Shown in pieces: positions 3,446 through 52,772 of a stretch of DNA of 64,000 nt. Source of the DNA: an uncultured Planctomycetia bacterium (lineage in GTDB: Bacteria > Omnitrophota > Gorgyraeia > Duberdicusellales > Duberdicusellaceae); the NCBI GenBank assembly GCA_964634935.1, contig CAZWJT010000008.1, positions 26,063-90,062 of the forward strand, given 5' to 3'. Positions within the stretch are counted from its first letter, which is position 1; each line of letters opens with the position of its first letter. The notes beneath the pieces were generated by a model that had not been told where the DNA came from, did not search any database, and was given only the letters and a program-made list of their open reading frames with translations. Both the position numbers and the translations under genes were made by a program.

Positions 3446-4429
3446 TTATTTTGAAGAAGGCTTGGTAAACCATGCAAGGTCAGAGTCAACCATCATTGCT
3501 ACCAAAGCCTCAAAGGTAACTTCCGGACTCCAGCCGAACGCGCGACGTGCTTTCTCGTAATTACCCTGCAGGGTATGCACTTCTGCCGGACGGTAAAATT
3601 TCTCATCAACCACAACATGGTCTTTCCAATTAAGCCCGACATGCGCAAACGCAAGCTCTACAAACTCACGGACCGAATACATCTTCCCTGTAGCAACCAC
3701 ATAATCATCAGGTTTTTCTTGCTGGAGCATAAGCCACATGGCTTTCACGTAATCTCCGGCAAAACCCCAGTCGCGTTTGGCATCCAAGTTACCTAAAGAC
3801 AATTTTTCCATCAGTCCAAGCTTAATCTTCGCCACAGCGCTTGAAATTTTCCGAGTCACAAATTCAAACCCGCGCCGGGGAGATTCATGATTAAATAAAA
3901 TCCCACTACAGGCAAACAATCCGTAGGCTTCCCGGTAGTTCCGGGTAAGATCAAACCCGGCTACCTTGGAAATACCGTAGGGCGAGCGCGGATGGAACCG
4001 GGTGTTTTCATTCTGAGGACTTTCTGTCACAAGACCAAACATCTCACTGGAACCCGCAAAGTAAAATCTGCAGCTTGGAGCCTTCTCTAAAACAGCTGAA
4101 AGCACGTAGTGTGTCCCGTTGATATTCGTGGTAATCGTGGAAAATGAATCTTCGAAAGAATAACTTACGAAACTCTGGGCGCCTAAGTGATAACATTCGT
4201 CAGGCTTTACTTTTTCGACAACATTAAAAATGCTCGGATAGTTTTCAAGAGACGCGGGGTGAAGATGAATGTCGTCCTGGATATGCCGTATCCTCCACAA
4301 CCGGTGGTCTGGATCTTCAAGTGCTACCCGGCGCACAATCCCATGAACCTCATACCCCTTGGATAAAAGAAGCTCCGCGAGATATGAGCCGTCTTGTCCG
4401 GTGATGCCGGTGATCAAGGCTTTTTTCAT
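3446..4429 (-). CDS. gmd: GDP-mannose 4,6-dehydratase
   Basis: MKKALITGITGQDGSYLAELLLSKGYEVHGIVRR... The SDR Rossmann motif and the conserved Gmd core are present throughout the 327 aa. Confidence 0.93.
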   Translation of the reverse strand: MKKALITGITGQDGSYLAELLLSKGYEVHGIVRRVALEDPDHRLWRIRHIQDDIHLHPASLENYPSIFNVVEKVKPDECYHLGAQSFVSYSFEDSFSTITTNINGTHYVLSAVLEKAPSCRFYFAGSSEMFGLVTESPQNENTRFHPRSPYGISKVAGFDLTRNYREAYGLFACSGILFNHESPRRGFEFVTRKISSAVAKIKLGLMEKLSLGNLDAKRDWGFAGDYVKAMWLMLQQEKPDDYVVATGKMYSVREFVELAFAHVGLNWKDHVVVDEKFYRPAEVHTLQGNYEKARRAFGWSPEVTFEALVAMMVDSDLAWFTKPSSK

Positions 4430-6946: not shown

Positions 6947-7690
6947 TTAAAACATCCCCTCTGACACAACAACGATATCACCGGACTTCAGGGGAATATC
7001 CGCTTTCGCGTCTCCGTTCATCACCGCGCTGACATTCACCTTCAAAGTTTCATATCCTGATTCCTGCTCTTTCGCCCGGAGCACTTTCACCCGGCTGGAA
7101 GATCCATACTTGGTAAAACCGCCGGCCATGGAAATCGCTTTCAGCACTGTCGTGTTTTCATCTAAAAGGTATGTTCCCGGTTTCATGATTTCACCGTAGA
7201 CAAAAAACTTCTTGCTTCTGTTTTCCCGAAGCGCTACCGCGACAACCGGATACTTCATATAACCATCAGCGAGCTTTTCCTGGACAAGCTCCTGTACTTC
7301 AAGAAGCGTAAGCCCTTTCACTTGAAGATTGCCTACATAGGGAAAATTTATACTGCCATCCGGAGCAACCGTCACGGTATTGGCTAATTTTTCCGGCTGA
7401 AGAATACTAATATCCAACACATCGTCAATCCCAACTTTATAGCCGTTGTTCTGTTCAGAAATCTCTTCCTCTATTTTTTTTGCTGGTTTTTGAGCCTCTG
7501 CGGCAGCGGCTGGTTCTACCTCCGGGCTTAAACCAACCTCTGGCAACGCCGGAGTTTCCGGCTGAGCCTCAGAAAGTATTCCCTCATTCTGCTCCTGTTC
7601 AGCCTGCGTATCATTGAACGACTGAGCAAGCGCATTATGCGCGCCGCACACAAACAACGCCCCCGCCAAGATCATACACAATAGTTTCAT
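6947..7690 (-). CDS. Short OPX (Wza-like) polysaccharide export protein with Pro/Ala/Glu-rich linker
   Basis: Signal peptide MKLLCMILAGALFVCGAHNALA, then a low-complexity linker (PALPEVGLSPEVEPAAAAEAQKPAKK), then PES/SLBB: YKVGIDDVLDISILQPEKLANTVTVAPDGSINFPYVGNLQVKGLTLLEVQELVQEKL...GTYLLDENTTVLKAISMAGGFTKYGSSSRVKVLR. Confidence 0.8.
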   Translation of the reverse strand: MKLLCMILAGALFVCGAHNALAQSFNDTQAEQEQNEGILSEAQPETPALPEVGLSPEVEPAAAAEAQKPAKKIEEEISEQNNGYKVGIDDVLDISILQPEKLANTVTVAPDGSINFPYVGNLQVKGLTLLEVQELVQEKLADGYMKYPVVAVALRENRSKKFFVYGEIMKPGTYLLDENTTVLKAISMAGGFTKYGSSSRVKVLRAKEQESGYETLKVNVSAVMNGDAKADIPLKSGDIVVVSEGMF

Positions 7691-10928: not shown

Positions 10929-13900
10929 TTATTCGGGAAGAGACCCGTCGTTTACTTTAATCACAAATCCATCGCTGTGAGCTGTCATCTCCGGAGCGTA
11001 CATAGACTGAAGCGTCGCAGCACCAACCCGATATACGCCGGCTTTTGTAGGCTTCAAGCGGTACCGAACAACATACTCGCCGTGAGGAATCCAGCTAATA
11101 AAAAAATTAGTTAAAGAATCCCTCGGCTCTTCATAGAAAGAAAGTGGATCATACTTCCAGCCGCTCAACAATGTCTCCGCCTCAAAACCGGCCGGCTTGG
11201 GATCTTTTAAGTGCATATATTCAAACTGGCTGCGGGTATTCAAAGTAAGTTCGACTTCAACCTGATCACCCACAGACACTTCCCCGCCGAAGGCAAGCGG
11301 CTTTAAATGGTACCCGTCTTCTTCCTTGACTCTCCGGTAAAACACGCGCTTGAGCGCAAGTAATCCCGGCATAGAGGCTTCGGGTACCTGGTCAGTTGAA
11401 TATACCCACGTAAGACTTGTGAAGGCAATTCCCGGTCCTTCTTTTTTAACGGTCACCGAGGTATCAACCCCGCGAATATCGGATCCATTCTTCTGCCAAC
11501 GAAGCGGTTTTTCCAGCCAATCATCAGCTTTTACCAGCAGTGAATCGCTCACCCCTCCCCATTGAACTAAAAACTTTTCGTCAGCGCCAAACGCCCCTTT
11601 GGCATTTAAAAAATCAAGGAGTGAATAGATTGCGGCGGCGGAAGCCTTGGTCGACTTCCATACCCCTGCTTTCCGGCTAAACAAAAGCCACTGAACCATA
11701 CCTGGAATCCGTTTATCCTCTGGCCTTAATTCCTGCAATGTCTTGAGCAAAAACGCGTGTTTTTCCACAGTATCTGAATACCAGACCCAGGAATATTTTT
11801 CTGGGGTCCAGTATACTCCGGCTATCGGGTCTTCCCGCGCTCCGTCTAAAGCCATATCCAAAATTTCTTCTGCCCGTTTTCTGTCGCCAAGCCGAAGATG
11901 AACATACGCAAGATACGCTTTTCCGAAAGGAGTCAGCGCAGCTGAATGCTTGTCCAAAAATACAACCCAGGAACGCGCCGCATCAAAACCAGCCTTGGCC
12001 TGAGGAAATTCCTGAACCGAGAAAGAAGTCACAACATACGCGGCATAGGCCACGAGCGCAAGATAAGAATCTTCCGCTTTTAGTTTCAGCGGTATCTCTT
12101 GATTCACGTAAGCAAGAGCTTTTGAAATAACCTGCCAAGGAACTTCCACCCCATACCTGCGGGCATGGGCAAAACCGTCAAGTACATAAAGGGTGATGTA
12201 TGGATCTGCGGCTCCTCCCGGCCACCAGGGAAAAGCCCCGTTGGGAAGCTGGGACATTGAAAGCCTCGCAAATACAGAATCTCTCTGCTCTTTTACTATT
12301 TCGGGATTCAAAAGATCTATAATCGGCCACGGAGTCGGCCGTCCTTTTGACTGCCACATCCAGGGAGTTTCTAAAAGCGTAATCAAACGGGTAGGGCTAT
12401 CCTTTTCCCAGGCTGGTGACGGAGTCATTCGCGTTGGAATTTTACTGACCGCTCTTTGCAGATCCGGATATTTCTTATAGACTTCATTCACGATGCTAAG
12501 CGGAACATACTTATTCAGCATCTGCTCAACACATTCATAAGGATATTCGATAAGGAACGGGATGCTGTTTAAAATACTCAAGATAAGCTGCGGTTCAATC
12601 TGTAAGACCATCGATTCATTCTGCCGGGTCGGATCAGCTTTCAGCTTTATCTCAATTTTTTTCTCTCCGGTTCCCGATAGCAACCCGAATGTCGATTCAA
12701 TCAGCCGCTCCCGAGAAGAAAGAATAGGAAGCATTCTCTCCTCCGCGTCAGAAAGCTTTCCGGAAATCGCCGCAACCCGTACTTTGTACGCAGAAACCCC
12801 TTCGGGTATCTCGACCGGAAACTGAAAATTCTGGAGGCTGTTTGGTTCTACAAAAAAACTTTTTTTCGCTCCGGAAATCTTTAATGCGTCGTTTATATTT
12901 TTCTCTCCGTCAAACACTTCAAGGGAAAGCTCTCCCCTGAGAGCTTTCCCTGATTCATTGTGCACAACCGCCGTAAGCGTTCCCTTGTCTTTTTCTCTGA
13001 AAAATCTGGGAATATCAGCCCGAACCATTAAGTCTTTTCTGGTCACAGCCTCTTCAGCTGCTGTTCCTTCTTTTGCATCCTTGGTAAAAGCAAAAATCTT
13101 CGCTCTCCAGCTCGTTAGCTGCTCGGGAGCAGTAAAAGAAAATAACGCTTTACCGTCTTTGCCGGTAATAATGCTCGGTTTAAAAAACGCGGTATCGGCA
13201 AATTCTTTCCTGGATTTTACTTGCCCGGAAGATTGTTGTTCGCGTAAGTTACTGCCTGCATAACCGCTCTTCCGATCTTTTTCCCCGTTGCTTACTTCGG
13301 CCATTTTAGAGACTGTACCCAAACACAGACTATCGGAATACCCCTCATCTTTACCGAGACCGCGCCGTAGGCCTAGCCAGCTCCTCCAAGACCGTAAAGA
13401 TGGAGGCTGAGGAACTCTATCTTTTTCCCGGAATGAACTAAGAATTTTTTCGAGCATTCCCTCTGTAATTGGCAATGAGCTAAAATAGGGAATAAAAGCT
13501 GAATGCTGCATTAATCCGTAATACGTGTCTAACGCATAGAGGGAATCAAGCCACGGATGTTGAGAAACCGCGTAGTATTCAAGCGAGCGGTCATACATCA
13601 ATGCGAGCGCCTCTGCTTGTTCGGGATTTCCACGATCGTCTTTTACTTCAATGCCCCACGCAGTTTCTTTCCCGGGAGCAAGTTCTTTGGTGAAAGGATT
13701 TATGATAACCTGCAATTTCTTTTCAGGCCATGGCACCGAGATTGTGACCGCTCCGGAATGCGTCTGCCCGTTTTTTACCCCAAACCAACGCAGAGAAAAA
13801 CCGCCCTTCATTTCTTCGGTTACCGGAACCTCGAGAACCTGGACAGGAAATTTTCCGGGTAATAGTTCATTACGCAAAAAATATCCGTTTGCCCATAGTT

Positions 13901-16900
13901 CAAGACAATAGATCCCCGAAGCAAAACTTGAGCCGATGACAAATCGGGCAATATCACCAACCGCGCATTGCTCTTTTTCGCTCAGCATGACTGAAGCGGC
14001 ATTCACCGGAACCGCAGACTTTGGGTTTTTTGCCACAACAAAAATCTTACTCTGCTCTACTTTCTGACCCCAGGGATCTTCTGTTCTCTCGGTAATCCGA
14101 TAGACACCCTGTGGTAATTTACTCAGTTCAATCTGTGCTTTTCCATCTGCGCCATGTTCAAGAACGCCTTCGGTAATTTTTTTATCATTCGCAACATCCT
14201 TTAACTGCAAATCAAGCGGAGGCAGCCAGTGGCCAGGCAGATTCCCGTATTCTTGCGAATAACCAAATCCGAGTTCGTCGAGCGATTTAGCCGGAGTATC
14301 GCTTAAACGAAAAACCTCATAACTGCCTGATGCGCTCAAGGGAGTTTCATTTAAGGTAAGCAGCGCCGAAGAAATCCGGATAGGCTCATGCTCAAAGAAA
14401 AATCCTTTTTCAGGTTCAATGACAAAATACAACGCCTCTTTTCCCGCGGTGTAAGCCTGCTGAGCGGTAATCGTCCTTCCTCCGGCATCGCGGCCTTCAA
14501 CTTCGATGATGAATTGAGAAATATCCGGCAAGGCATTCCCTCCGTACATTGCCCCCTGCGGCACTGGCGTAAAGGGTATGAAAAAATTCCCCTGGGCGTC
14601 TGTTTTTATATCTCCCGCGACAAGATCCTGCGGATAGTCAGAATAGGATTGGACCCAATGGCGAAAACACCAGGGAAGATAAAATCGTTTTTTGATCCGG
14701 TATTTTACCGGCGCGTCAGGAACAACGCCTCCAAAATAATACCGCGCCTTACCCCGGATGGTAACTGGCTGGTTATATTTCCAGGGCTCAGACGCCTTTT
14801 CAAGAATGATCTCGAACTCCGGGCGCTTATATTCTTCCACGACAAAAGGTATCCTGGTGACATTGCTATAGCCTTCCCCGGCAATCAGGACACTTATCGA
14901 ATAGTTCCCAAGGACTCTGCCTTTTGGAATTTGAAAGGCCAGGCTCTCGCTGGCAAACTCTCCCAAAGGAATCTCCTTGCTGAAAAATTCTTCACTATTG
15001 GGATCAGACGCTGAAATCTTTACCGTGCCTCCTTGCAGAGTCCGGAAACCCTGAGGCGTACGCCACATGCCAATCGCCTTAACGTTCACAGTATCAGAAG
15101 GCCGGTAAATCGGCCGGTCGGTTTCCGCGAACACAATGATTGGATTGGGAGGTTCATAGAAAAAATAAATGTTGTTTCTTAGGTATGCAGACGCTCCTTT
15201 GTGGCGCGCAAGCGGATCAAGAGAATATCGCGTATCAGCTTCGGGAAAAACAGCGACTGGAACAGACAGTGACGCAAACCCGCGCGAATCAGCTTGAGAA
15301 TCGGCTGTTTTTTCTACGCTCCCACTATGGTTTAGATCACAAAGTAAACTGGTAATTTCTGCTTTTTCTATTGGCTCTCCGGTTTGCAGGTTGAGGGCGT
15401 AGAACCGGAAAACCGCGTCATCAATCTTTTCATCCTGAGTGTTCTTCTTGCTTAAGTATTGATAATACGCGGTACGCGCTTTTGTAGTTTGCCCTTGGCT
15501 TATCAACAGCGCAAAATCGGTGATATTCAAAAATCCTGCCCAAACGAATTCACTCCCAATGGAGAAATTACGGTTGGGGCTGGCAAGGATCAAAAAGACA
15601 CCTAATGGTAAATCCGGCGGCAGCGCAACCTCAGAATGGATAGCTTTGTAATTTTCGTATTTGGGAATATCAAATACCCAAGTCTTACAATAACTCTTCT
15701 GGGTTACATACTTCTTCACCCACTCATTCTCAGGATTATTCAGCAACGAAGACCACCCGCGAACATTCTTCCGCTCAGAAGCTTCTTGGCGGTACAGAAC
15801 CTGCGGATCAATCTGGTAAGCGCGAAAATAAATTTTCTTGATATTATTCGTACTTAAGAAGAATGTCTGCGGCCGGTCTGATTGAGCCGCAAGTACCCGC
15901 ATATGAAAAACCTGCAACTCTATTTGCTGGCGACGGGCGCGGGCTGTTTTGCTGGAAAAAGTACCCGGGAACGTCCGTTCAATCTCTTCGTAGAGATTCA
16001 CCGCCTCAGCGTAACTCTGTAAATTTTCGGCAAGAATCCCCGCTTCTAAACCGGCTTGCGCCTTCGCCGCTGCGGTAGAAAAATCGCGCATCCATCGCAG
16101 TAGAATCGCTTTTGCTTTCCTGCGCGCAGCTTCAATATCCTTAAAATCATACAAATGCGCATTCTGGAACGGGAAAATGAGGCGTTCAATTTCCCATCGT
16201 TCTCCGGCTTCAAAACGGACCGCGCTCCGTAAACGGCTTGCTTCCTCAATAAGTTCAAGCGCAAGCATCCCTGGCGAATCCTGGATATCCACCGGAAGAC
16301 GGAAATTCTCTACTAAAAATATATCTTCCTGTGGCCGGGGCAAGTCACGCATATTCTGTGCGTCCTGAAGAATAAAATGGATCCAGCTGAAAATGACATA
16401 ATCAAAAAGGGTGGGATACATTCCAAAATCTACGCCCTCGATCTGAAAAAAATAACCCTGAGCCCGCAGATCGACTTGAGCAAGCTCGCGGGACATACGG
16501 AGTAATGCCTGATAGGAAGATATAATCTCTTTTTGAAGCTGCTTTGGCGTTAAGCGAAATACGTCGGTCTCCCCCTCCCGGATGTCCGTTGACTGAATTG
16601 ATGAATATTGAAGAGAGAAATTTTGCAGGATTTCAGCTTTTAAGACTAAAACAAGCGCTTTATATGGCATCCGCTCTGGAAGCGTAACCTGGAGAACCTT
16701 CTCAGCAGCTTCTCCGTACCGGTATAAATGAGCAAGTGAATCACAAAGACGGAAAAAAGCCTTCCAGCGTATTTCATCGCGTGCGCTTTCTTGAAAAATC
16801 TTTTCATAGATGTTAGCCGCTTCCTGAAAAGCACGATTTTCAAAAAGCTCGTCGGCTTTGGTCAACTCCGCAGCAAATGAAGATGAAAAGAAGCAGAAGA

Positions 16901-16937
16901 AAACTACACTCAGAGAAATTACCAACCATCCCCGCAT
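10929..16937 (-). CDS. Bacterial alpha-2-macroglobulin family protein (thioester-containing), 2002 aa, with N-terminal TPR-like extension
   Basis: Signal peptide MRGWLVISLSVVFFCFFSSSFAA. Thioester motif in ...IPFLIEYPYECVEQMLNKYVPLS... (CxEQ). The size and MG-like repetitive beta-domain character fit. The N-terminal roughly 300 aa is TPR-like (ADELFENRAFQEAANIYEKIF...). Confidence 0.85.
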   Translation of the reverse strand: MRGWLVISLSVVFFCFFSSSFAAELTKADELFENRAFQEAANIYEKIFQESARDEIRWKAFFRLCDSLAHLYRYGEAAEKVLQVTLPERMPYKALVLVLKAEILQNFSLQYSSIQSTDIREGETDVFRLTPKQLQKEIISSYQALLRMSRELAQVDLRAQGYFFQIEGVDFGMYPTLFDYVIFSWIHFILQDAQNMRDLPRPQEDIFLVENFRLPVDIQDSPGMLALELIEEASRLRSAVRFEAGERWEIERLIFPFQNAHLYDFKDIEAARRKAKAILLRWMRDFSTAAAKAQAGLEAGILAENLQSYAEAVNLYEEIERTFPGTFSSKTARARRQQIELQVFHMRVLAAQSDRPQTFFLSTNNIKKIYFRAYQIDPQVLYRQEASERKNVRGWSSLLNNPENEWVKKYVTQKSYCKTWVFDIPKYENYKAIHSEVALPPDLPLGVFLILASPNRNFSIGSEFVWAGFLNITDFALLISQGQTTKARTAYYQYLSKKNTQDEKIDDAVFRFYALNLQTGEPIEKAEITSLLCDLNHSGSVEKTADSQADSRGFASLSVPVAVFPEADTRYSLDPLARHKGASAYLRNNIYFFYEPPNPIIVFAETDRPIYRPSDTVNVKAIGMWRTPQGFRTLQGGTVKISASDPNSEEFFSKEIPLGEFASESLAFQIPKGRVLGNYSISVLIAGEGYSNVTRIPFVVEEYKRPEFEIILEKASEPWKYNQPVTIRGKARYYFGGVVPDAPVKYRIKKRFYLPWCFRHWVQSYSDYPQDLVAGDIKTDAQGNFFIPFTPVPQGAMYGGNALPDISQFIIEVEGRDAGGRTITAQQAYTAGKEALYFVIEPEKGFFFEHEPIRISSALLTLNETPLSASGSYEVFRLSDTPAKSLDELGFGYSQEYGNLPGHWLPPLDLQLKDVANDKKITEGVLEHGADGKAQIELSKLPQGVYRITERTEDPWGQKVEQSKIFVVAKNPKSAVPVNAASVMLSEKEQCAVGDIARFVIGSSFASGIYCLELWANGYFLRNELLPGKFPVQVLEVPVTEEMKGGFSLRWFGVKNGQTHSGAVTISVPWPEKKLQVIINPFTKELAPGKETAWGIEVKDDRGNPEQAEALALMYDRSLEYYAVSQHPWLDSLYALDTYYGLMQHSAFIPYFSSLPITEGMLEKILSSFREKDRVPQPPSLRSWRSWLGLRRGLGKDEGYSDSLCLGTVSKMAEVSNGEKDRKSGYAGSNLREQQSSGQVKSRKEFADTAFFKPSIITGKDGKALFSFTAPEQLTSWRAKIFAFTKDAKEGTAAEEAVTRKDLMVRADIPRFFREKDKGTLTAVVHNESGKALRGELSLEVFDGEKNINDALKISGAKKSFFVEPNSLQNFQFPVEIPEGVSAYKVRVAAISGKLSDAEERMLPILSSRERLIESTFGLLSGTGEKKIEIKLKADPTRQNESMVLQIEPQLILSILNSIPFLIEYPYECVEQMLNKYVPLSIVNEVYKKYPDLQRAVSKIPTRMTPSPAWEKDSPTRLITLLETPWMWQSKGRPTPWPIIDLLNPEIVKEQRDSVFARLSMSQLPNGAFPWWPGGAADPYITLYVLDGFAHARRYGVEVPWQVISKALAYVNQEIPLKLKAEDSYLALVAYAAYVVTSFSVQEFPQAKAGFDAARSWVVFLDKHSAALTPFGKAYLAYVHLRLGDRKRAEEILDMALDGAREDPIAGVYWTPEKYSWVWYSDTVEKHAFLLKTLQELRPEDKRIPGMVQWLLFSRKAGVWKSTKASAAAIYSLLDFLNAKGAFGADEKFLVQWGGVSDSLLVKADDWLEKPLRWQKNGSDIRGVDTSVTVKKEGPGIAFTSLTWVYSTDQVPEASMPGLLALKRVFYRRVKEEDGYHLKPLAFGGEVSVGDQVEVELTLNTRSQFEYMHLKDPKPAGFEAETLLSGWKYDPLSFYEEPRDSLTNFFISWIPHGEYVVRYRLKPTKAGVYRVGAATLQSMYAPEMTAHSDGFVIKVNDGSLPE

Positions 16938-34655: not shown

Positions 34656-34955
34656 TTATTTTCTTTTTTCTTGCTGCAGCGCAGCCCTGATTATCCGTAT
34701 ACTTTCAAACACACTTCCCAACAAACCCAAACCAGTGAAAAGAAAGGACGAATAAGCCGGAAATTTCCAATACGCATATAGATAGTTTCCCGCAACGTAC
34801 CCGGTTAAAGGCCCTGCAACAAGTACGAAGGGAATGAGCAGAAGATACCCTGCGATAGTAATAAACTTATAAACCGAATTTTTCTCTCCTGCCACACATA
34901 CCTCTGAACGACCGATTAAAAAAAATGTCTCCTGGCTTACTCGACCAGAAGACAT
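34656..34955 (-). CDS. AtpI/AtpZ-like small membrane protein (first gene of atp operon)
   Basis: 99 aa, two TM helices, directly upstream of atpB. Confidence 0.5.
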   Translation of the reverse strand: MSSGRVSQETFFLIGRSEVCVAGEKNSVYKFITIAGYLLLIPFVLVAGPLTGYVAGNYLYAYWKFPAYSSFLFTGLGLLGSVFESIRIIRAALQQEKRK

Positions 34956-35038: not shown

Positions 35039-35068
35039 TTGAATTTCTAAAAATCGATGTGCTATACT
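35039..35068 (+). promoter_or_regulatory. Candidate sigma70 promoter driving the riboswitch-like leader (TTGAAT-N18-TATACT)
   Basis: -35 TTGAAT at 35039-35044, 18 nt spacer, -10 TATACT at 35063-35068. Divergent from the atp promoter. Confidence 0.45.
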
Positions 35069-35104
35069 TTGCCTGTACACTGATAATTGACATAAATACA
35101 GACC

Positions 35105-35250
35105 TGAGTGAAAAAAGGCAAATCTCGAGCAATCGAGAGACGCAAAGCGACAGTCCCGGTGTGGGCCTGGTAAGACAGGCCGACCTCCCGGGAGGCTGCG
35201 CTGCCACAGAGGAATAAACCCTAAAGCGTTGCCTTTAGGGTTTTTGCTTT
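35105..35250 (+). promoter_or_regulatory. Candidate c-di-GMP-I (GEMM) riboswitch with intrinsic-terminator expression platform
   Basis: AAAAAAGGCAAAUC, then a GNRA-capped hairpin UCUCGA-GCAA-UCGAGA, then GACGCAAAGC, then a CCCGG...CCGGG helix containing GGUAAG. This matches the GEMM-I core (A-rich run, GCAAAnC, P1b GNRA hairpin, GGACGCAAAGC, GC-rich P2). A terminator hairpin plus U-tract follows immediately before the RBS of the next gene. Confidence 0.5.
35216..35250 (+). terminator. Rho-independent terminator/attenuator hairpin in the 5' leader
   Basis: AAACCCTAAAG-cgttgc-CTTTAGGGTTT, followed by TTGCTTTT. An 11 bp stem with a T-run, about 30 nt upstream of the ATG at 35284. Confidence 0.6.
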
Positions 35251-35283
35251 TAAGGGCCTGGGTGGGTTTGAAGGAGGTACGGC

Positions 35284-35619
35284 ATGGAAGGAAAAACACA
35301 ACGAATTCTCCTGTTCTGGACACTGAGCGGAATTGGATTTCTTTTCTTTTTCGTTGTGTTTTTATCTTTTTCACCGACCGCATCAGCAGAAAATTCTACA
35401 ATTAGAATCGCCTGTATCATCCCTGAAATCCCAGGGAAAAATGTCGCAGTCATTGAAGAACATGCGACACTTCCTCTTCGACAAACAATTGACGAACAAA
35501 AAAAAGAAATAAGCCCAGAAAATAGTTATCCTCTGCTCTTCCAGAAAGAAACCAGAGAAAAAGTGGAAAGGGAAAATACAATCCTCTTGGTCACAACACA
35601 AACCGTCTACAGCCGCTAA
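35284..35619 (+). CDS. Small secreted/membrane-anchored hypothetical protein (111 aa)
   Basis: Strong RBS GAAGGAGGT 6 nt upstream of the ATG. N-terminal hydrophobic signal/anchor ILLFWTLSGIGFLFFFVVFLSFSPTASA, then a roughly 76 aa charged domain. No family recognised. Confidence 0.6.
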   Translation: MEGKTQRILLFWTLSGIGFLFFFVVFLSFSPTASAENSTIRIACIIPEIPGKNVAVIEEHATLPLRQTIDEQKKEISPENSYPLLFQKETREKVERENTILLVTTQTVYSR

Positions 35620-35680: not shown

Positions 35681-38600
35681 TTAGCGTTCTGTCTTCTTTA
35701 AAGGAATATTGTGGATGTAGCGGCTCCCTTCAAAAAGGGTGATTTTTTTAATCAGCGGAACCTTGGGAAGATAGTAAACGGGAATTGTGTTTAAATTCAA
35801 AGTGAGCGTATGCTCGCCGGGTTGAACGTTCATAAAAGCATAACTTCCGGAATCATCAGTTATGGATTTCTTGCCGTCTTCAAGGACGAGTACGACCCGG
35901 CGGACGCCCTTATCAACACGGCTATACAACCCATCGTTATCCTTGTCCTCAAAGACAAATCCGGATATTTCTGAACGGGCGGAGATGCCAAAATCAACCC
36001 GTATACACTCATTATGCACGATGGAGACCTTTTGTGTTTGCGGGGTCGTCAGAACAAATCCGTCAGGAATTGTTTTACTATCAAGAGCAACAAGTCCCTT
36101 GTGTTGAGGAACCCGCTCAAATCTATAAAAACCCAGGGAAGAACTCAGGAGCGGATTCTCATGGAACAGAATGATCTTGATTTTTTCTACTCCAGGCTCA
36201 TTGTCCTGGCGTATACCGTCAAAATTAATATCCTGAAATACGTAGCCTTCTATAGACCCGACTGGTTCCCAATGAATTCCCGTATCCCAGAGGGAACGCA
36301 TTCCAAGATTAAAACTCGTTTCGATTCTTTCTTCCACGGCGCGATTCTCAGCCCAGACATTGCGAATCCGCGCCGAACCGAACAATTCCGCGTCGTCATT
36401 CAATCTCCAGGTAAGTGATGAGTAACCTTCGATATAATCTTCTCCGGTAAGAAAACCAAGATTTGATTCGGTGTCTTCCTCATTGCGAAAGAGAAAACGC
36501 ACCGTACTCGAAAGCGGCGTATTCGGAAAAGATCCCGACCAATCAAGACCAGTCTCAAAGGCGGATGGCTTTGAACGTATTCCCGTAAAGCGTTCTTCGA
36601 GCCAGTTGAATTCCCGAGATAGATAGTAAAAAACATTCTTGCCGAGATTAATTCTGGCACTGGCTATGGCGCGTTCATTAAAATAATCGGAACCCGGGGA
36701 AGAGAAATTTTCATTCTCCTGATGGAAAAGATGCAATGAAACTTCCGCGTTATCCGGACGCAAAAGAGAAAATCTTTGTGATATCCCCGCATCAAAATTT
36801 TGATACCGGTATTGAGAAATACGACCAAGTTCATTACGCAGCGTGTAATGAGCCTGCAGAGAAGTATGAGGAGTAAGCCGGTAAAAAGCGCTTAAATCTA
36901 AATCTTGGTTCAGCCGGTGTTCGCTATCCCAAGCAGGATAGATTCTGTCTTGGAACAAATCAAAACTCCCCCGCAGCTCAAGATGCTCGATAGATTGGTT
37001 GTTAAAACTGAAAAGCATCCCAAGTTCTCCTTGGCGCGTAGCACTCCCGGTGCTGGTTGTGTAATCACGGTCGATATTCCTCAATTCAAAATCAAAGCTT
37101 CCCTGCGGTATCGCATGGCGCACCGTAAAAAGATGTGCCGGATCTTCTGGATCAGCCGCAAACTCGTATCCAATACTCCATTGATCAAGTTTCCAGATTC
37201 CACGTAAATCATACCCAACCGGGTTCAACTCAACCTCGCGATCTTTTCCAAAACCATGCACAACAGTCGCACTGTATTCCTGCGTAGCATCCGGAATATA
37301 CTGCACATGGAAACCGTCAATAAACGCGTCCCTCTCACTGGTGAGACTCGGAGAAATAAACCCATATCCTAACGTATGTTCTCTTCCGGCAAAAGCGGTG
37401 TAACGGATCTTTTTATTGAATGCTGCGGCCGAAAGCATACCCCCTCTTAGACTAATACCTGGAAATACCAAATTCGCAAAATCCGGAGGCCGCTCAAAAA
37501 AATCAAATGCGCGCAGACTAAACCCATCAAAGGTGCCGATATGCCCGTCAGTAATCCCCAGCGTAACCGTGTTGAGCTCGAGTTCCTTTTGGAAACGGCT
37601 CACCGAAAGAGAAGCATCTAAATTACCGTAAGGCGTCGGACCATAAAGCCCTATGGTATGGGTATAAAAATAATCCGTTCGGCCAAGATCGTCCAGGCTC
37701 GGCCCACGCTCATAGAGCGACCAATCAGTCGCCGAGCTTACTTTGAAATTATTTCTCCGCGAAAATTCATCAAGTGCCTTCTGTTGTAAATTTTCCCCTG
37801 CCGGCTTTTGCGGTATAGTTAAGAATTGAATTGTGGCTCTTCCCTGGTCGTTCCAGATATGCAAATAGGTATACCCGAGTTCTTTCCCGGTAACAAAAAT
37901 ACGGTCTGTGCCCGTACGCTCAGCGGTAATGATCCCCTCTTGGGTAACGAGAATTCTTCGAACGCCGGAGCTTACAATCAAAATACTTTTCTCCTGCTCT
38001 ATTTGAAATGCTTCGGCTTTTAAGTCGAGAAGCTTTTGAAGAGATATCTCAACCGGCGGCTGACTTTCCGTGGCCTTCGTTGCAACATGCTGCGCAATAC
38101 GTCTTTCTTCTTGCCGCTCTACTGGCACAGGCATTGGCGCCGTTGGCTCTGGTTGTGGCATGTACTTCGGGGCGCTCACCAATGCCCTGGTATCTTGAAG
38201 CACAATCGTTTTTTTTGCATCGGGTTTTCCCCCGACAACTGGCTGAACAGGAATTGATGTCACCGCTGGGCCGGGAAAATCTTCGTAAACAAAATCAACT
38301 TGTATATTACGCAGTTGTGCCGTGTTTTGCATCCCAAGCACAACCCTTGTTTTCTTAGGGTGATCTCGGCCTTGAGCAGAAACAGGAAAAACATCTTCTG
38401 TTTCAAAAATTAAATCTTCTCCAGCCCCATACGCAGTAGTCTGGTATTGATATGAAACCTTAGGTCTTGAGGTTATCTTCTTAGACCAAGTTTTTTCCTG
38501 GATGGGTATGGCACGCTTGAGTATTTCTATTTTCTCGATGTACCCAAGTACTTTTTGGTTCTCTGGATCTAAAACCAGCAATTTCTTAAACTCACTCAGC

Positions 38601-38905
38601 GCTTGATCATATCGTTTTTCTTGATAGAGTTGGGAGGCAGATTCAAAGAGAAAATCAAACGATAAAGGATAGTTTTCAGCGAGCGAAGAAAGGCTTAAAA
38701 GAAACAGAATCAAGAATAATTTTATCGAACGATAAAGCGATGAAGCTAAAAGGGCATTTTTTATCGCAGGAGTTGGAAACGAAAAATTACTGAATTGACC
38801 CAAGACGAAGAATCTCCCCTTGCGACCCAACCTCAACCTCCGCTTCTTTTGTAAGCACAAATTCGGAGCCGGCATTTTCTTCTTCGAGAGATCTTCCAAG
38901 ATCAA
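35681..38905 (-). CDS. Large outer-membrane protein: TPR + CpaC-N-like pilus-formation domain + beta-barrel-like region + C-terminal Cna-B/SdrD-B-like domains
   Basis: TPR-like segment SASQLYQEKRYDQALSEFKKLLVLDPENQKVLGYIEKI. Pilus-N-like segment ILIVSSGVRRILVTQEGIITAERTGTDRIFVTGKELGYTYLHIWNDQGRATIQF. A roughly 450 aa Tyr/Phe-rich amphipathic-strand region. C-terminal repeats VFQDINFDGIRQDNEPGVEKIKIILF and FVFEDKDNDGLYSRVDKGVRRVVLVLEDGKKSITDDSGSYAF. No secretin C-domain motif and no usher plug recognised. The true start is uncertain, probably ATG at 38875 (MPAPNL...), which overlaps the upstream gene. Confidence 0.7.
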   Translation of the reverse strand: MILEDLSKKKMPAPNLCLQKKRRLRLGRKGRFFVLGQFSNFSFPTPAIKNALLASSLYRSIKLFLILFLLSLSSLAENYPLSFDFLFESASQLYQEKRYDQALSEFKKLLVLDPENQKVLGYIEKIEILKRAIPIQEKTWSKKITSRPKVSYQYQTTAYGAGEDLIFETEDVFPVSAQGRDHPKKTRVVLGMQNTAQLRNIQVDFVYEDFPGPAVTSIPVQPVVGGKPDAKKTIVLQDTRALVSAPKYMPQPEPTAPMPVPVERQEERRIAQHVATKATESQPPVEISLQKLLDLKAEAFQIEQEKSILIVSSGVRRILVTQEGIITAERTGTDRIFVTGKELGYTYLHIWNDQGRATIQFLTIPQKPAGENLQQKALDEFSRRNNFKVSSATDWSLYERGPSLDDLGRTDYFYTHTIGLYGPTPYGNLDASLSVSRFQKELELNTVTLGITDGHIGTFDGFSLRAFDFFERPPDFANLVFPGISLRGGMLSAAAFNKKIRYTAFAGREHTLGYGFISPSLTSERDAFIDGFHVQYIPDATQEYSATVVHGFGKDREVELNPVGYDLRGIWKLDQWSIGYEFAADPEDPAHLFTVRHAIPQGSFDFELRNIDRDYTTSTGSATRQGELGMLFSFNNQSIEHLELRGSFDLFQDRIYPAWDSEHRLNQDLDLSAFYRLTPHTSLQAHYTLRNELGRISQYRYQNFDAGISQRFSLLRPDNAEVSLHLFHQENENFSSPGSDYFNERAIASARINLGKNVFYYLSREFNWLEERFTGIRSKPSAFETGLDWSGSFPNTPLSSTVRFLFRNEEDTESNLGFLTGEDYIEGYSSLTWRLNDDAELFGSARIRNVWAENRAVEERIETSFNLGMRSLWDTGIHWEPVGSIEGYVFQDINFDGIRQDNEPGVEKIKIILFHENPLLSSSLGFYRFERVPQHKGLVALDSKTIPDGFVLTTPQTQKVSIVHNECIRVDFGISARSEISGFVFEDKDNDGLYSRVDKGVRRVVLVLEDGKKSITDDSGSYAFMNVQPGEHTLTLNLNTIPVYYLPKVPLIKKITLFEGSRYIHNIPLKKTER

Positions 38906-39653
38906 TCGTCATCACGAGGCTATACGTGCCTGGAAGCACCATCCCCGGAGTAACCGCTTGCAAAGAAGCGCTCCCACCCGGAAACGTGTATACATCCTTA
39001 AATTCACCGCGCAGCTGCACGATACCATCCCGATCTATCAGATGAAAAGTCCCGCCCGCGGTAATATCGACATTCCCTGTATTTTTCAAATCACAGGAAA
39101 GTACGTATTCTTCCTTCACTCTATCGATCTTGAAATTCTCAAGCGCCGCTGTACGGATAATCGTGCTTTCTGGCTCTAGATAAAAGAGGGTCGCGATACG
39201 GATAGCAATATTCATCCCTGCACTTAAAGCTCCCCCGCGCTGCTCAATCTTGCCAAACATGCTCTCAAAAAACAAAGCAGCATAATGACCGCCTTTTGCG
39301 TCAGGCGGCACTTTTACAGAATAGCTGACTTTTTGTTTTGTAAAGGGTTTTAACACAAATTCAGCTGGGGAAAAGGTAATCCAAGAAGCGCATGAGAGCG
39401 GAGTTGTCCCAGCAGGAGAAAATTCCTTGGTGCCATCAGCAGCGGGGAGATACGTCCAATCCCCCAAATATACCCGCATTGCACGTTCTTCAGCGGTGGT
39501 ATTCTCAACCACTATATCTCCATAACCGCTTTGGCCGGGTATGATTGAAATCCGTATCTTAGTTTTATTGATTGAGGGAAGTTCTACGGCAAGACACAGA
39601 GAGGCAGATAGAAAGAAAAAAAGAAAGAAAGTTATGTTCTGAAAACGCTTCAT
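38787..39653 (-). CDS. Secreted two-domain SCPU/Csu-like beta-sandwich protein (fibre subunit or assembly factor)
   Basis: Signal peptide MKRFQNITFFLFFFLSASLCLA from ATG 39653. Two roughly 130-150 aa units, each ending in the G-x-Y-x-x-x-V/I-x-F/Y-x-L motif (GGHYAALFFESMF; GTYSLVMTIDL). The track ORF start at 39692 lies inside the palindrome. Confidence 0.6.
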   Translation of the reverse strand: MKRFQNITFFLFFFLSASLCLAVELPSINKTKIRISIIPGQSGYGDIVVENTTAEERAMRVYLGDWTYLPAADGTKEFSPAGTTPLSCASWITFSPAEFVLKPFTKQKVSYSVKVPPDAKGGHYAALFFESMFGKIEQRGGALSAGMNIAIRIATLFYLEPESTIIRTAALENFKIDRVKEEYVLSCDLKNTGNVDITAGGTFHLIDRDGIVQLRGEFKDVYTFPGGSASLQAVTPGMVLPGTYSLVMTIDLGRSLEEENAGSEFVLTKEAEVEVGSQGEILRLGSIQ

Positions 39654-39666
39654 TTCATTATAGAGT

Positions 39667-39697
39667 AGTGTGTGGTGCATTTGATGCACCACACACT
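39667..39697. repeat. Perfect 14 bp inverted repeat (AGTGTGTGGTGCAT-ttg-ATGCACCACACACT) flanked by 10 bp direct repeats TTTCATTATA
   Basis: Left arm 39667-39680, loop 39681-39683, right arm 39684-39697. Direct repeats TTTCATTATA at 39653-39662 and 39697-39706. Intergenic between the pilin-like gene stop (39712) and the next gene start (39653). Confidence 0.9.
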
Positions 39698-39711
39698 TTC
39701 ATTATACTCGC

Positions 39712-40287
39712 TCAAGGAGAAAGGGTCAATGTTACTGTTCCTGCATAAGAGCCTGTTGGCTTTGAAGTCGTGATAACCGAAACCCCGGTTGCGTCTCCGC
39801 TGCCACTTGCCAGAGCATAATAGATTCTAAGCCGCCCATTCGTCAAATCAGAGGCACTGTACACCTTGTTATTGCTGTTTTCATAGCTTACATAGCCTCC
39901 GGACAATACAGTCTCAGCGTTGTCAGCATTATTTACTTTCACGAATTTCACATTGGTGTGACCATTCAAGTTGTTTGTCGCGTCTTTCTGGAAATTGGTA
40001 CGGGTATGTGTCACAGTCCAGGTTGTCCGATTTGAAGTTACCGGAGCATCAACAACAAAGTATGAATTTGATCGGAACACGTTATCTGTACCCTGAGTAA
40101 GAGAAAGAAAATCCATACCGATTCCAAGCAAATCACTCACAGGGGTCCACGTCGTACCTGTTACCTTGTTCACTGCTACATTCATCTGGTGTGTTTCACC
40201 AATGTTCGCAGCGATACGAATTGTTGTCGCCGCAAAACAGAATGAAGCAATTCCCACGATAGCCACGAGAAAAAGAATCTTTCGCAT
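39712..40287 (-). CDS. Secreted SCPU/Csu-type fimbrial-like subunit (single domain, 191 aa)
   Basis: Signal peptide MRKILFLVAIVGIASFCFA, then ATTIRIAANIGETHQ... C-terminal motif PTGSYAGTVTLTLSP matches the SCPU C-terminal strand G-x-Y-x-D-T-V-T-V-T-V. AAGGAGG RBS upstream. Confidence 0.65.
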   Translation of the reverse strand: MRKILFLVAIVGIASFCFAATTIRIAANIGETHQMNVAVNKVTGTTWTPVSDLLGIGMDFLSLTQGTDNVFRSNSYFVVDAPVTSNRTTWTVTHTRTNFQKDATNNLNGHTNVKFVKVNNADNAETVLSGGYVSYENSNNKVYSASDLTNGRLRIYYALASGSGDATGVSVITTSKPTGSYAGTVTLTLSP

Positions 40288-40374
40288 AAATCCTCCTTAT
40301 TTTCTCCCTATATTACGCACACATCCCTTAGATCAACCATAATTACTCGCTGTTTGAGCACAAACCTCCTTTTT

Positions 40375-41763
40375 TTACAATTCCAATAATGAATAGGTTA
40401 CATTCGCAGTATAATCTCCGGCTGAAACATGTTCGCCTGGAATCAGCTGGTAAATGATCTTGAATCGATCAGGGCTTCCCTCCAGATTTGAAACAAAAAC
40501 AGTTGAACTACCCTGAAGAACTTTCGTTTTACCCGGAAACTTAAGCATCCCTTTTGAGTCCAGGGATTCCATCTGGAACGTGAAATTTTCAGGGGGAATC
40601 GATTTTCCCTCTTTATTAACAAGCAAGGAAGAAACATCCTGTATCACCTGGTATCTGACTTTCCGGTTTGATTTTATTTCTAAAATCACTTCTCTGCGCT
40701 GAGGGGGATCATTCGGCTTTACATCTCGAAACTCCAAAGCGTTTTCTTTTGTTTTCAGTTGTACTTCCAAATCAAAAACCTGAGGTATTTCAATTTCAAT
40801 CTCCGCGTTCCCTATCTTCCGCTCAACGCCCCCTTGACTTAAAAAATACTCGATTGTCGAACGATACAATCCTGCCGGTAAAGAAGCTGTATCCTGCAAA
40901 GAATACCGAACTAAAAAGCTATCCCTATTCCGGGAAGGTGCACTTGTATAAAGAATTTGGGTTTGTGTCCGAAGCGGCGTTAAACCAAGAATGCTTTCTG
41001 ATTTTTCAATCCCCTGAACCATAAATTGCAATGCCCGTTCATCAAGCCTGCTCCCAGAATTTGATTCAAAAGGAACACGTAAGAATTGTTTTACAGAAAA
41101 TAACCCTTGAATGGGATTTATAATTTTGAAAAGGACGTCCGCCGTATTTTTCCCCTGCGTGGGATTGAAGCTAAGCCGCGAAGAAGCCGAGGGAAAACTG
41201 ATTTCCAGGGAATTCCCTTGCGTAGGAAGGTCGCGCGCAAGAACACGAACCTCAACGATCTTGGTTATCGGACTCTGGCCTCCCCCGAGAGGATAGAGGG
41301 TAAAGCTGATCCTTCCTGAATAATCCCCGGGAGAAATACGCAATAAATCTTTCAGCGCATAAACAAGCGTAAAGGTATCAGCATGCCCAACACTGTCTGA
41401 AACATACATAATTTCGTCACTGCGTACAACCGCTTCAGTTTCCGGCGCGCGTAAGTCTCCAAATCGATTCGTTCCGGAAACTCCCCGAAAAAGAAAATGA
41501 TCACTGAGATTAAGCTGCGGGTTGTTCCTCTCCTGAAGTGGGGCAATAATTCTCTGTACAACCTGGTACCGGGTGGAGATATCGGAGTCAATTCGCACAC
41601 GTATTCCCCGGGAAACAAGCGTAGGGGTAAAATCGAGCTGCGCACCACCTTCGGTAAGAGTATACGAGAGGTCAAAAACGGCAAGAGCGATATTAACCTG
41701 GAAAAAACAAATAAATAAAAACAGATATATTCTACCTAGACGAGTTTTGCTTGTCTTTTCCAT
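40375..41763 (-). CDS. Secreted protein with three tandem SCPU-like domains (tip/adhesin-like subunit candidate)
   Basis: Signal peptide MEKTSKTRLGRIYLFLFICFFQVNIALA. Three roughly 150 aa repeats ending GDYSGRISFTLYPL, AGLYRSTIEYFLSQ and GDYTANVTYSLLEL. The track start at 41772 is GTG. Confidence 0.65.
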   Translation of the reverse strand: MEKTSKTRLGRIYLFLFICFFQVNIALAVFDLSYTLTEGGAQLDFTPTLVSRGIRVRIDSDISTRYQVVQRIIAPLQERNNPQLNLSDHFLFRGVSGTNRFGDLRAPETEAVVRSDEIMYVSDSVGHADTFTLVYALKDLLRISPGDYSGRISFTLYPLGGGQSPITKIVEVRVLARDLPTQGNSLEISFPSASSRLSFNPTQGKNTADVLFKIINPIQGLFSVKQFLRVPFESNSGSRLDERALQFMVQGIEKSESILGLTPLRTQTQILYTSAPSRNRDSFLVRYSLQDTASLPAGLYRSTIEYFLSQGGVERKIGNAEIEIEIPQVFDLEVQLKTKENALEFRDVKPNDPPQRREVILEIKSNRKVRYQVIQDVSSLLVNKEGKSIPPENFTFQMESLDSKGMLKFPGKTKVLQGSSTVFVSNLEGSPDRFKIIYQLIPGEHVSAGDYTANVTYSLLEL

Positions 41764-41862
41764 GGCTTTCACTATCGTAGAGATAGTGCGTATTTTTCGA
41801 GTTTAATAAGACGTCCAGGAATGATACTTAGTACTTTTTAAACATATTAAATAAGTAAATTT

Positions 41863-51451: not shown

Positions 51452-51889
51452 ATGAAACATTTTTTATTCCGTGTGGCTTTCTCTGTTACGATTCTCTCGT
51501 GCTCTCTCGGAATCTTAACGTTCAGACCCGGCTTTTGCCAGGAAGACAAAAAACTGGCTCAAATCTATCAAGAATGCGTGCAGGCTATTCAAAAAGCAGA
51601 AAAGTTTTCGGACATTGAAATATACTACACGCAGGATGCGGTTGCCCAGTCGAAAGGAAACGAAGCAGCTGTCTTGATGATGCTCAAAGGCATGAATATT
51701 CGCGACATACAGCCCCTCGGAGAATCGATCCAAGGTGACACGGCTACATTGACGATGAAAGCCCAAACAAACATGGGACCAGCAGATGCCAGTATCTCAT
51801 TTAAAAAGGAAAACGACTCCTGGAAAATCTCCGAAGAAGACTGGAAATTTCAGTTTCAGGCAGGACAAAATCCTCCACCCGCTCAATAA
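51452..51889 (+). CDS. Secreted hypothetical protein
   Basis: Start MKHFLF with AAGGAGGTG RBS, signal peptide, about 120 aa mature protein. No family recognised. Confidence 0.5.
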   Translation: MKHFLFRVAFSVTILSCSLGILTFRPGFCQEDKKLAQIYQECVQAIQKAEKFSDIEIYYTQDAVAQSKGNEAAVLMMLKGMNIRDIQPLGESIQGDTATLTMKAQTNMGPADASISFKKENDSWKISEEDWKFQFQAGQNPPPAQ

Positions 51890-51953
51890 CAATCATAAAA
51901 ACATAAAAGCCATCTTGCTGTATAAACAAGATGGCTTTTATGTTTTCTCTCGT

Positions 51954-52772
51954 CTACGGTAAAGAGATGTCGACGAGATGAATAGGTACCGTTTTAATCG
52001 CCTTTTCGGTCTTCAACATAACCTCAACTGAAATATCTTGGGAAAAAGCACTGCCAAATGAAAAAGTCTTTAAGTCTCCGGAATACCCCCAGGAATCAGG
52101 GCGGATTTCCTCGCCAGAAGCGGCAAAAAACTTAAACCCAATTACCTTGGACTGAGGATCCTTAAATCGTATATACACGCTGTTCTCATCCGACCCAAGC
52201 ATTCCAGAAAACATCTGGTTCATCGATCGGTTTGGATTTACGGCTCCCCCCTTTTCTGAATCTTTGAGAAAATTTTCATAAGCTTCTTTGCTGTAAATAC
52301 TTAACTCTACTTGCGCTTCTTGCAAGACCTTTTCAGTCACTATTTTACCGCCGCCGATAAGCGCGCGCGAAATAGTAACCCGCGACAAAGGATCCTGCCG
52401 GGGACTGTAGAGTTCAATCTCGCCGCTGATTTCTCGTATGACCGAAGCGTTCCGGGCTGGATTCTCGAGTTTCAATTCAAACTGCGCCTGGCCGGTACCA
52501 TCGCCTCTAAAATCTTCAAAAGCTTTGTGATCGTAAAACTTTTCTTCTTTCAAAAGATTTCTCCCGGTATCGTCCATCGCTTTTGCAAGAATAAGGCGTA
52601 CTTTTTCAACATGTTCAAGTCCATCACCAGAGAGTTTCAGTTCCACACTTAATTCATTGAAAAACTTTCCGGTAGAACGAGAATCTTTCACGTCTCCAAC
52701 CTCAACCGTGATATCCGAGGAAAAGACAGATCCGGCAAAGAAAATCGACATAATCAATAGTGCGTATTTCAC
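51954..52772 (-). CDS. Secreted hypothetical protein (272 aa)
   Basis: Signal peptide MKYALLIMSIFFAGSVFSS; beta-rich. No family recognised. Confidence 0.5.
   Translation of the reverse strand: MKYALLIMSIFFAGSVFSSDITVEVGDVKDSRSTGKFFNELSVELKLSGDGLEHVEKVRLILAKAMDDTGRNLLKEEKFYDHKAFEDFRGDGTGQAQFELKLENPARNASVIREISGEIELYSPRQDPLSRVTISRALIGGGKIVTEKVLQEAQVELSIYSKEAYENFLKDSEKGGAVNPNRSMNQMFSGMLGSDENSVYIRFKDPQSKVIGFKFFAASGEEIRPDSWGYSGDLKTFSFGSAFSQDISVEVMLKTEKAIKTVPIHLVDISLP

Follow-up and report, generated by a model that had tools for sequence, protein, structure and literature searches.

The leader of a small gene in an uncultured Omnitrophota bacterium raises the questions of which signal it senses, whether that signal turns the gene on or off, and what the gene has to do with the putative envelope cluster beside it. 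We analysed this leader within a 64,000-nucleotide (nt) stretch of contig CAZWJT010000008.1 (GenBank assembly GCA_964634935.1, positions 26,063 to 90,062 of the forward strand), here called the window, whose numbering is used throughout. A previous description made from the letters alone (the sequence-only reading) had placed a class I cyclic di-GMP (c-di-GMP) riboswitch, or GEMM-I element, at 35039–35283. We conclude with high confidence that the leader is a genuine member, of an ordinary kind, of class I of the c-di-GMP riboswitches and carries a terminator and, with less assurance, that it is a transcriptional OFF switch.

The test that had been named beforehand, a comparison with Rfam RF01051, bore out the proposed identity. 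When the whole window was searched against 4227 Rfam families, RF01051 matched 35107–35208 (+) over its full length (model positions 1–87 of 87) with 58.4 bits (gathering threshold 35) and an E value, for that entire search, of 7.6e-9. No other RNA reached its gathering level in the window, and a permissive whole-window scan revealed no weaker riboswitch copies, only two chance-level matches at one hairpin (51891–51949). The class II family RF01786, which had been suggested as an alternative, had no match in these scans and is not relevant. The 216-nt leader is more stable than its dinucleotide shuffles (z = -3.4), and its minimum free energy (MFE) fold holds the helices P1, P2 and P3 and the terminator together, so that the conserved blocks can form the aptamer architecture. 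Promoter, terminator, ribosome-binding site and same-strand open reading frame (ORF) are all present.

The promoter (35039–35068, +) was found where it had been described and was also recovered by a consensus scan; it is of the sigma-70 type, with the -35 box TTGAAT (35039–35044), an 18-nt spacer and the -10 box TATACT (35063–35068), which is extended by the TG at 35060–35061 (TGcTATACT, 35060–35068). Transcription probably starts near 35075. The aptamer, including P1, occupies 35103–35212 (+), and its elements follow the order recognised in the sequence-only reading, which is also that of RF01051 and of Vc2 from Vibrio cholerae, namely an A-rich/GGCAAA strand, a GNRA-capped P2, an GACGCAAAG junction, a purine-bulged P3 and UGCC. 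The 5' strand of P1, CCUGAGUG (35103–35110), pairs in the MFE fold with CACAGAGG (35205–35212) and is followed by the A-run (35111–35116) and GGCAAA (35117–35122). The P2 hairpin UCUCGA-GCAA-UCGAGA (35123–35138), identified from the sequence, the RF01051 alignment and the fold, carries a GNRA tetraloop and is followed by GACGCAAAGC (35139–35148), which contains the junction GACGCAAA (35139–35146). P3 (35146–35159 with 35188–35202, GG bulge at 35194–35195) includes the GC-rich strands GUCCCGG (35153–35159) and CCGGGAG (35188–35194), and the aptamer core closes with GCC (35203–35205), which contains the equivalent of C92 in Vc2.

The ligand contacts of Vc2 are, according to PMC4744006, G20, A47 and C92 together with an interhelical C-G pair. 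When the window was aligned to the RF01051 consensus, equivalents of all of these fell, at the level of sequence, on conserved model positions: G35117 corresponds to G20, A35144 to the intercalating A47 and C35204/35205 to C92, while C35141 and the bulged G35194/35195 correspond to the interhelical pair; G35118-C35119 is paired with G35142-C35143. The leader is thus predicted to bind c-di-GMP. Two features set it apart from the RF01051 consensus: i) P3 contains a window-specific insertion of 28 nt, where the model has 6, with an additional hairpin GGCCUG-GUAAGA-CAGGCC (35164–35181), and ii) the 11-nt tetraloop receptor positions of the model (CUAA and UAU) are deleted, with a P2 loop of GCAA and not GAAA. 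GNRA loops other than GAAA are able to dock on plain helical C-G pairs.

The distribution of the element was traced through the neighbouring gene. The 111-aa protein encoded downstream retrieved only itself when 5.8 billion proteins were searched by a word index, whereas the large protein encoded convergently with it had homologues at 36–47% identity, one of them named Candidatus Omnitrophota. An alignment of the large protein was scanned against species-representative genomes and yielded 58 Omnitrophota loci, designated below by L numbers. A covariance model (R1), built from 26 aptamers and giving the window 73 bits, found an aptamer running convergently to the large gene in 47 of these 58 loci as well as in L004, L006 and L007, and the Rfam scan likewise placed a riboswitch of clan CL00126 upstream of the small genes in L004/L005, L006 and L007. 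The element was not found in 11 of the 58 loci, at least 6 of which extend no more than about 400 nt beyond the large gene. Downstream of the riboswitch, 51 of 51 loci encode a homologue of the 111-aa protein (family A), a synteny which supports the earlier suggestion that the leader controls this small secreted protein.

The aptamer is kept among species whose proteins are about 40% identical, and its helices covary. Among 26 sequences, standard pairs occupy 92.8% of cells versus 78.8% in shuffles, with 15 pairs changed on both sides, and none of 500 shuffles reached the observed value on any pairing measure. All 6 pairs of P2 are paired in every one of the 26 orthologues, 5 of them with compensatory changes, and P3 is 97.6% paired, with compensatory changes in 8 of 11 pairs; the P2 of the window itself (UCUCGA/UCGAGA) is wholly unlike the common CUAGCA/UGCUGG, a direct case of compensation. 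The columns equivalent to ligand contacts are invariant or at least 90% conserved, the junction nucleotides C, G, C, A, A and A being invariant and the columns of G35117 and G35118-C35119 likewise.

Three further features of the orthologous leaders were observed. Eight loci (L004, L012, L013, L016, L031, L034, L037 and L052) have one or two extra hairpins of about 35–60 nt between GGGGC and GCAAAG, inside the junction bearing the ligand-contacting A, which is an unusual insertion place for GEMM-I. In L009, two adjacent matches on the same strand (7173–7258 and 7287–7343, -) are possibly tandem aptamers. In L002 (13061–13177) and L003, the family A gene has an upstream region of only 116 nt without a riboswitch match, indicating that at least one lineage has lost or replaced the element.

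How the aptamer could control transcription is suggested by what follows it. The intrinsic terminator T1 (35216–35251, +) consists of a hairpin (35216–35243) with a stem of AAACCCUAAAG and CUUUAGGGUUU and a loop of CGUUGC, followed by the U-rich tract UUGCUUUU; the terminator scan counted 11 pairs, 4 of them G-C, and a 6-nt loop, in agreement with the 11-bp hairpin that had been noted ahead of the ribosome-binding site. Its base-pair probabilities are 0.87–1.0. In about 46 of 51 loci, a hairpin ACCCUAA(A)G-loop-CUU(U)AGGGU with a U-tract starts 0–18 nt after the aptamer, and this terminator is nearly fixed in sequence, including its loop, among the species with proteins about 40% identical. 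It starts after P1 without overlapping it and both are present in the MFE fold, which makes a ligand-bound aptamer and the terminator compatible. In many orthologues (L004, L008, L010, L015, L018, L036 and others) a second intrinsic terminator lies about 10–40 nt after T1, with GGCA/UGCC in its stem and often a GUUUGCC loop complementary to the aptamer GGCAAAC; the window has no second terminator.

The conserved loop of T1 is complementary to the aptamer. The strand AAAGGCAA (35114–35121, +), which lies in the 5' part of the aptamer and is a candidate antiterminator strand, and UUGCCUUU (35229–35236, +), which comprises 4 nt of the T1 loop and the first 4 nt of its 3' arm, form 8 contiguous complementary bases, 4 of them loop nucleotides. 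The median contiguous complementarity between T1 loop/3' arm and aptamer 5' strand is likewise 8 bp over 34 standard-type loci and reaches 7 bp or more in 22 of them (random loops, 500 trials: mean 4.0, maximum 10); 23 loci involve 3 or more loop nucleotides, versus a mean of 3.3 with random loops. In a fixed register, 78% of cells pair versus no more than 57% with the partner shifted along. The putative antiterminator helix has C-to-U changes preserving G-U pairing in 6 cells and changes on both sides in 5 cells, where 1.7 were expected (1 of 500 shuffles), as in L065, where the aptamer reads GGUAAA and the terminator ACCUUU. In one clade (L047, L049, L050, L060 and L061) as well as L007 and L020, this stretch of T1 complements instead the 3' strand of P1 (AAAGGAU/AUCCUUU and AAAGAG/CUCUUU). 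In folds from which T1 was barred, the partner of its 3' arm was the GGCAAA strand (about 32 of 51 loci) or the P1 3' strand (about 10), and its 5' arm often paired with the P1 3' strand or the linker. In the nascent window RNA ending at 35236, the antiterminator helix is present in the MFE fold; it is gone by 35239.

Since the partner strands are those that c-di-GMP would lock, and since the bound aptamer and T1 can coexist, ligand binding would be expected to cause termination, and the conservation of the loop-to-pocket complementarity far beyond chance suggests a kinetic transcriptional OFF switch. We therefore lean, with moderate confidence, towards the leader at 35075–35283 being such a switch. 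RNA polymerase would start at the extended -10 promoter and transcribe P1, P2 (GCAA) and P3, with T1 beginning 3 nt later. With c-di-GMP bound, AAAGGCAA and both strands of P1 would be held in the aptamer, T1 would fold and the gene would be off; without ligand, the free AAAGGCAA would capture the emerging UUGCCUUU, the P1 3' strand or linker could hold the 5' arm of T1, and formation of the hairpin would be delayed long enough for polymerase to read through into the family A gene. Class I riboswitches of Clostridioides difficile (for example upstream of flgB) are reported to be transcriptional OFF switches that often precede small hypothetical proteins (PMC11477304), and the window resembles them in having an intrinsic terminator directly after the aptamer; compared with them, the window antiterminator appears to use the 5' pocket strand of the aptamer against the loop and 3' arm of T1.

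Several observations speak against an OFF switch of this kind. T1 is favoured at equilibrium without ligand by 5.8–8.7 kcal/mol in the window (median 4.3–6.9 across loci), and the switch would therefore need to be kinetic, or could be largely constitutive. Covariation in the antiterminator is thin, both strands being nearly invariant, and four loci (L022, L027, L037 and L045) lack the complementarity. A motif-level scan of the window found no GGDEF, EAL or PilZ candidate. Vc1 is said to activate its downstream gene. The precedents from other bacteria are also not uniform, since c-di-GMP unfolds T1 in Bc1 of Bacillus thuringiensis (PMC11218506), opposite to the direction proposed here, and Vc1 also responds to c-di-GMP in regulating its downstream gene (PMC4744006).

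Bc1 is a precedent for the same aptamer acting as an ON switch, with c-di-GMP favouring read-through and the secreted protein being made at high c-di-GMP, a reading that we consider rather unlikely. Bc1 has dual terminators, and many orthologues of the window leader resemble it in having two in tandem, unlike the window with its single one. c-di-GMP usually promotes adhesive surface structures, and an adhesion or fibre factor would be expected to be produced when it is abundant. In addition, the end of a conserved box upstream of the aptamer, UUAGG, complements CCUAA of the T1 5' arm and could in principle be an antiterminator released by ligand. However, this pairing is only 5 bp, is uncompensated (L018, L024 and L028) and is almost never chosen in constrained folds, and the UUAGG half is missing from the window. 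Moreover, the terminator and P1 do not overlap and coexist in the MFE fold, and the conserved complementarity is directed at the strands that the ligand sequesters.

The box in question, ATTGACAATTAGG, is part of a leader organisation shared by the orthologues, consisting of a promoter CTTGAAA-N17-TG(C/T)TATACT (in most loci), the box, the aptamer and the terminator. In L008, L020, L031, L033 and many more it forms a perfect DNA palindrome TAATTG-A-CAATTA (TAATTGACAATTA) just after the -10, and in L014, L035, L039 and L048 the palindrome is kept even at least 25 nt away from the -10. As an RNA antiterminator or anti-P1 element the box was set aside on the pairing grounds given above, and since it is a perfect DNA palindrome, an operator is likelier than an RNA pairing element. 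It resembles an operator of a dimeric regulator, which may be the family B protein described below. The window retains only TAATTGACATAAA, within a degenerate remnant of the box (TAATTGACATAAAT, 35084–35097, +) recognised by comparison with orthologues, and also lacks family B.

Quite unlikely, in our estimate, is that the leader acts mainly in antisense, with read-through entering the large gene at its 3' end and lowering its expression, and the small ORF being secondary. The arrangement is suggestive, since gene A always abuts the large gene, ending -4 to about 100 nt from its stop in all loci inspected (61 nt in the window), which leaves little room for a terminator and makes convergent transcriptional interference possible; the first terminator-like site after gene A (35726–35739) falls inside the large gene, and antisense arrangements are more enriched among c-di-GMP riboswitches than in any other riboswitch class (PMC9943018). 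However, the family A ORF is under protein-level selection (274 members with a signal peptide and invariant C, P, G, N and Y) and has a strong ribosome-binding site in the window, and an antisense effect would add to the control of gene A and not replace it.

The sensing of another cyclic dinucleotide, such as 3',3'-cyclic GMP-AMP (cGAMP), or membership of the c-di-GMP-I-GGC variant (RF03167), whose ligand is unsettled, is very improbable. RF03167 belongs to the same clan as RF01051; it gave 50.9 bits on the window under permissive filters and was the best-scoring family for the orthologues L006 and L007. The window nevertheless falls below its gathering threshold of 59 while passing that of RF01051. 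The RF03167 consensus GACGCGAA (GACGCGAAg) has G after GC, where the window (GACGCAAA/GACGCAAAG) and the other Omnitrophota RNAs have A (GCAAAG), and GCAAA is kept in the window and in all 26 orthologues of the alignment, so that the position of A47 appears canonical in the Omnitrophota aptamers. From RF01051, most orthologues depart only by GAC to GGC, one junction position upstream, while the window has the canonical GAC; the GGC-variant reading was set aside for these orthologues as well, on account of the same G/A difference. The variant was reportedly defined by Weinberg et al. (2017, PNAS). As for cGAMP, an A replacing G at the position of Vc2 G20 marks the cGAMP-selective GEMM-I RNAs (c-AMP-GMP, GEMM-Ib), and the window has G there (G35117). 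Such cGAMP-selective variants are mentioned in PMC7266159. L025 (6076–6167, -) is the sole orthologue with A at the G20 equivalent (AAGAGCAAAC versus AAAGGCAAAC in the others), a substitution that moves GEMM-I selectivity towards 3',3'-cGAMP; its terminator loop also deviates (GGCAAC).

Finally, a chance resemblance or decayed relic, to which the predicted dominance of the terminator at equilibrium and the absence from the window of gene B and of the second terminator of many orthologues might point, is effectively refuted by the covariation and conservation across species and by the full-length, highly significant RF01051 match with core nucleotides, promoter, terminator, ribosome-binding site and ORF intact, leaving it scarcely credible.

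The gene predicted to be controlled by the leader (35284–35619, +) is preceded by the Shine-Dalgarno sequence GGAGG (35273–35277), 6 nt upstream of the ATG at 35284, and encodes the 111-aa family A protein with a signal peptide-like N-terminus, the motif ACIIPEIPGKN and the C-terminus TVYSR. Family A comprises 274 members at E values of at most 0.001, all unannotated and, where the organism is named, always from Omnitrophica/Omnitrophota; it has no Pfam or NCBIfam match. Its members share the signal peptide, the motif SCTIPxIPGxN, a variable low-complexity middle and a C-terminal TxYSR. An AlphaFold model from 84 sequences was non-globular (predicted local distance difference test, pLDDT, 67; predicted template modelling score 0.27), with a signal helix, disorder at residues 57–81 and a moderately confident beta-hairpin at the C-terminus. 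Between the riboswitch and gene A, about 32 of 51 loci encode a small protein of family B (e.g. L004 12027–12302, L006 13236–13562 and L007 8551–8829, all on the minus strand), which has the conserved sequence RVVTFLNRxEVDFLDKLGKDALFSTGLKLSRAKLIAWLVDF, is probably cytoplasmic and has no Pfam, NCBIfam or PDB profile match. The gene is not present in the window.

The small gene had been described as lying beside a fibre cluster. There is indeed an adjoining envelope or pilus-like cluster, of four genes on the opposite strand (35681–41772, -; 465, 191, 301 and 1040/1074 aa), convergent with gene A; on weak domain evidence, the name 'fibre cluster' is plausible. The common layout in the contigs of homologues consists of genes for proteins of about 470, 190–250, 280–300 and 900–940 aa, tail-to-tail with one or two small genes. 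Domains recognised in the large protein are TPR, T2SS-T3SS_pil_N and SdrD_B; its PDB profile search gave only TPR and SdrD. The 301-aa family has a marginal profile match to the fimbrial chaperone EcpB (5dfk, E 0.013), a single-sequence AlphaFold model of the 301-aa protein had no usable fold (pLDDT 31), the 191-aa family has no PDB profile match, and Pfam and NCBIfam searches revealed no chaperone, usher or pilin match among the cluster proteins.

In relatives, the cluster is linked to c-di-GMP by two observations. L006 encodes a PilZ-domain protein (3769–4176, +; 31.5 bits, cut-off 22.5) directly upstream of the cluster, and in L010 (20–155, +) and L062 (2–114, +) a second GEMM-I riboswitch lies on the cluster's own strand, before an unannotated ORF of 111–112 aa that heads the cluster. 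The 4-kb flanks used here would miss such upstream copies in most loci.

Family A may itself be related to a putative fibre subunit encoded in the cluster, the 191-aa protein. The mature N-terminus of the window family A protein (residues 36–53, 35389–35442), STIRIACIIPEIPGKNVAV, shares 11 of 18 residues with that of the 191-aa protein (residues 22–39; 40171–40224, -), TTIRIAANIGETHQMNVAV, and similar pairs of N-termini occur in L016, L017 and L049. Within-locus similarity is 27.1, versus 18.2 for shuffled and 24.9 for between-locus comparisons (permutation p ~0.014). Comparison of the two families with hhalign gave 96% probability with the signal peptides included and an E value of 0.038 over 18 columns when these were trimmed, so that the homology is a weak lead, marginal after signal-peptide trimming. 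One could speculate, though we regard it as unlikely, that family A is a 'strand-only' mimic of a fibre subunit that caps, primes or plugs an Omnitrophota-specific chaperone-usher-like fibre, and that c-di-GMP would set the length or number of fibres by turning off the cap via the riboswitch, with convergent transcription into the cluster perhaps adding to the effect.

On its other side, the leader diverges from the atp operon, as had been described. The promoter of the operon, TTGACA-17-TAATAT (35013–34985, -), faces a 99-aa ORF (34656–34955) followed by atpB-E-F-H-A-G-D; the 99-aa protein is without a Pfam match. A 12-bp terminator-like hairpin followed by TTTTTTT (34925–34955, -) is located exactly at the start codon of this ORF and may serve the atp operon as an attenuator or translational element. 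Elsewhere in the window, a very large ORF of 2002 aa was noted at 10929–16937 (-). The hairpin at 51891–51949 (-), located between the convergent genes 51422–51889 (+) and 51954–52772 (-), gave sub-threshold matches to Plastid-psbA-3 (31 bits, E 0.095) and to MIR9563; most likely it acts as a bidirectional terminator and belongs to neither family.

The host phylum and the target gene family are new with respect to the known cases of RF01051. Our literature search found riboswitches in Omnitrophota only in passing references, and the association with families A and B and with the cluster appears to be previously undescribed. The locus extends known c-di-GMP biology and is not a new kind of system. 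The conserved terminator, with its loop complementary to the pocket strand, is a compact natural case for kinetic riboswitch design. For the Omnitrophota, which are uncultivated and ultra-small, the riboswitch is a marker linking c-di-GMP signalling to a single conserved locus that comprises two unannotated families of small proteins (A and, in most species, B) and an envelope cluster without recognisable family assignment, and it offers a testable entry into the regulation of surface structures in a phylum without a genetic system.

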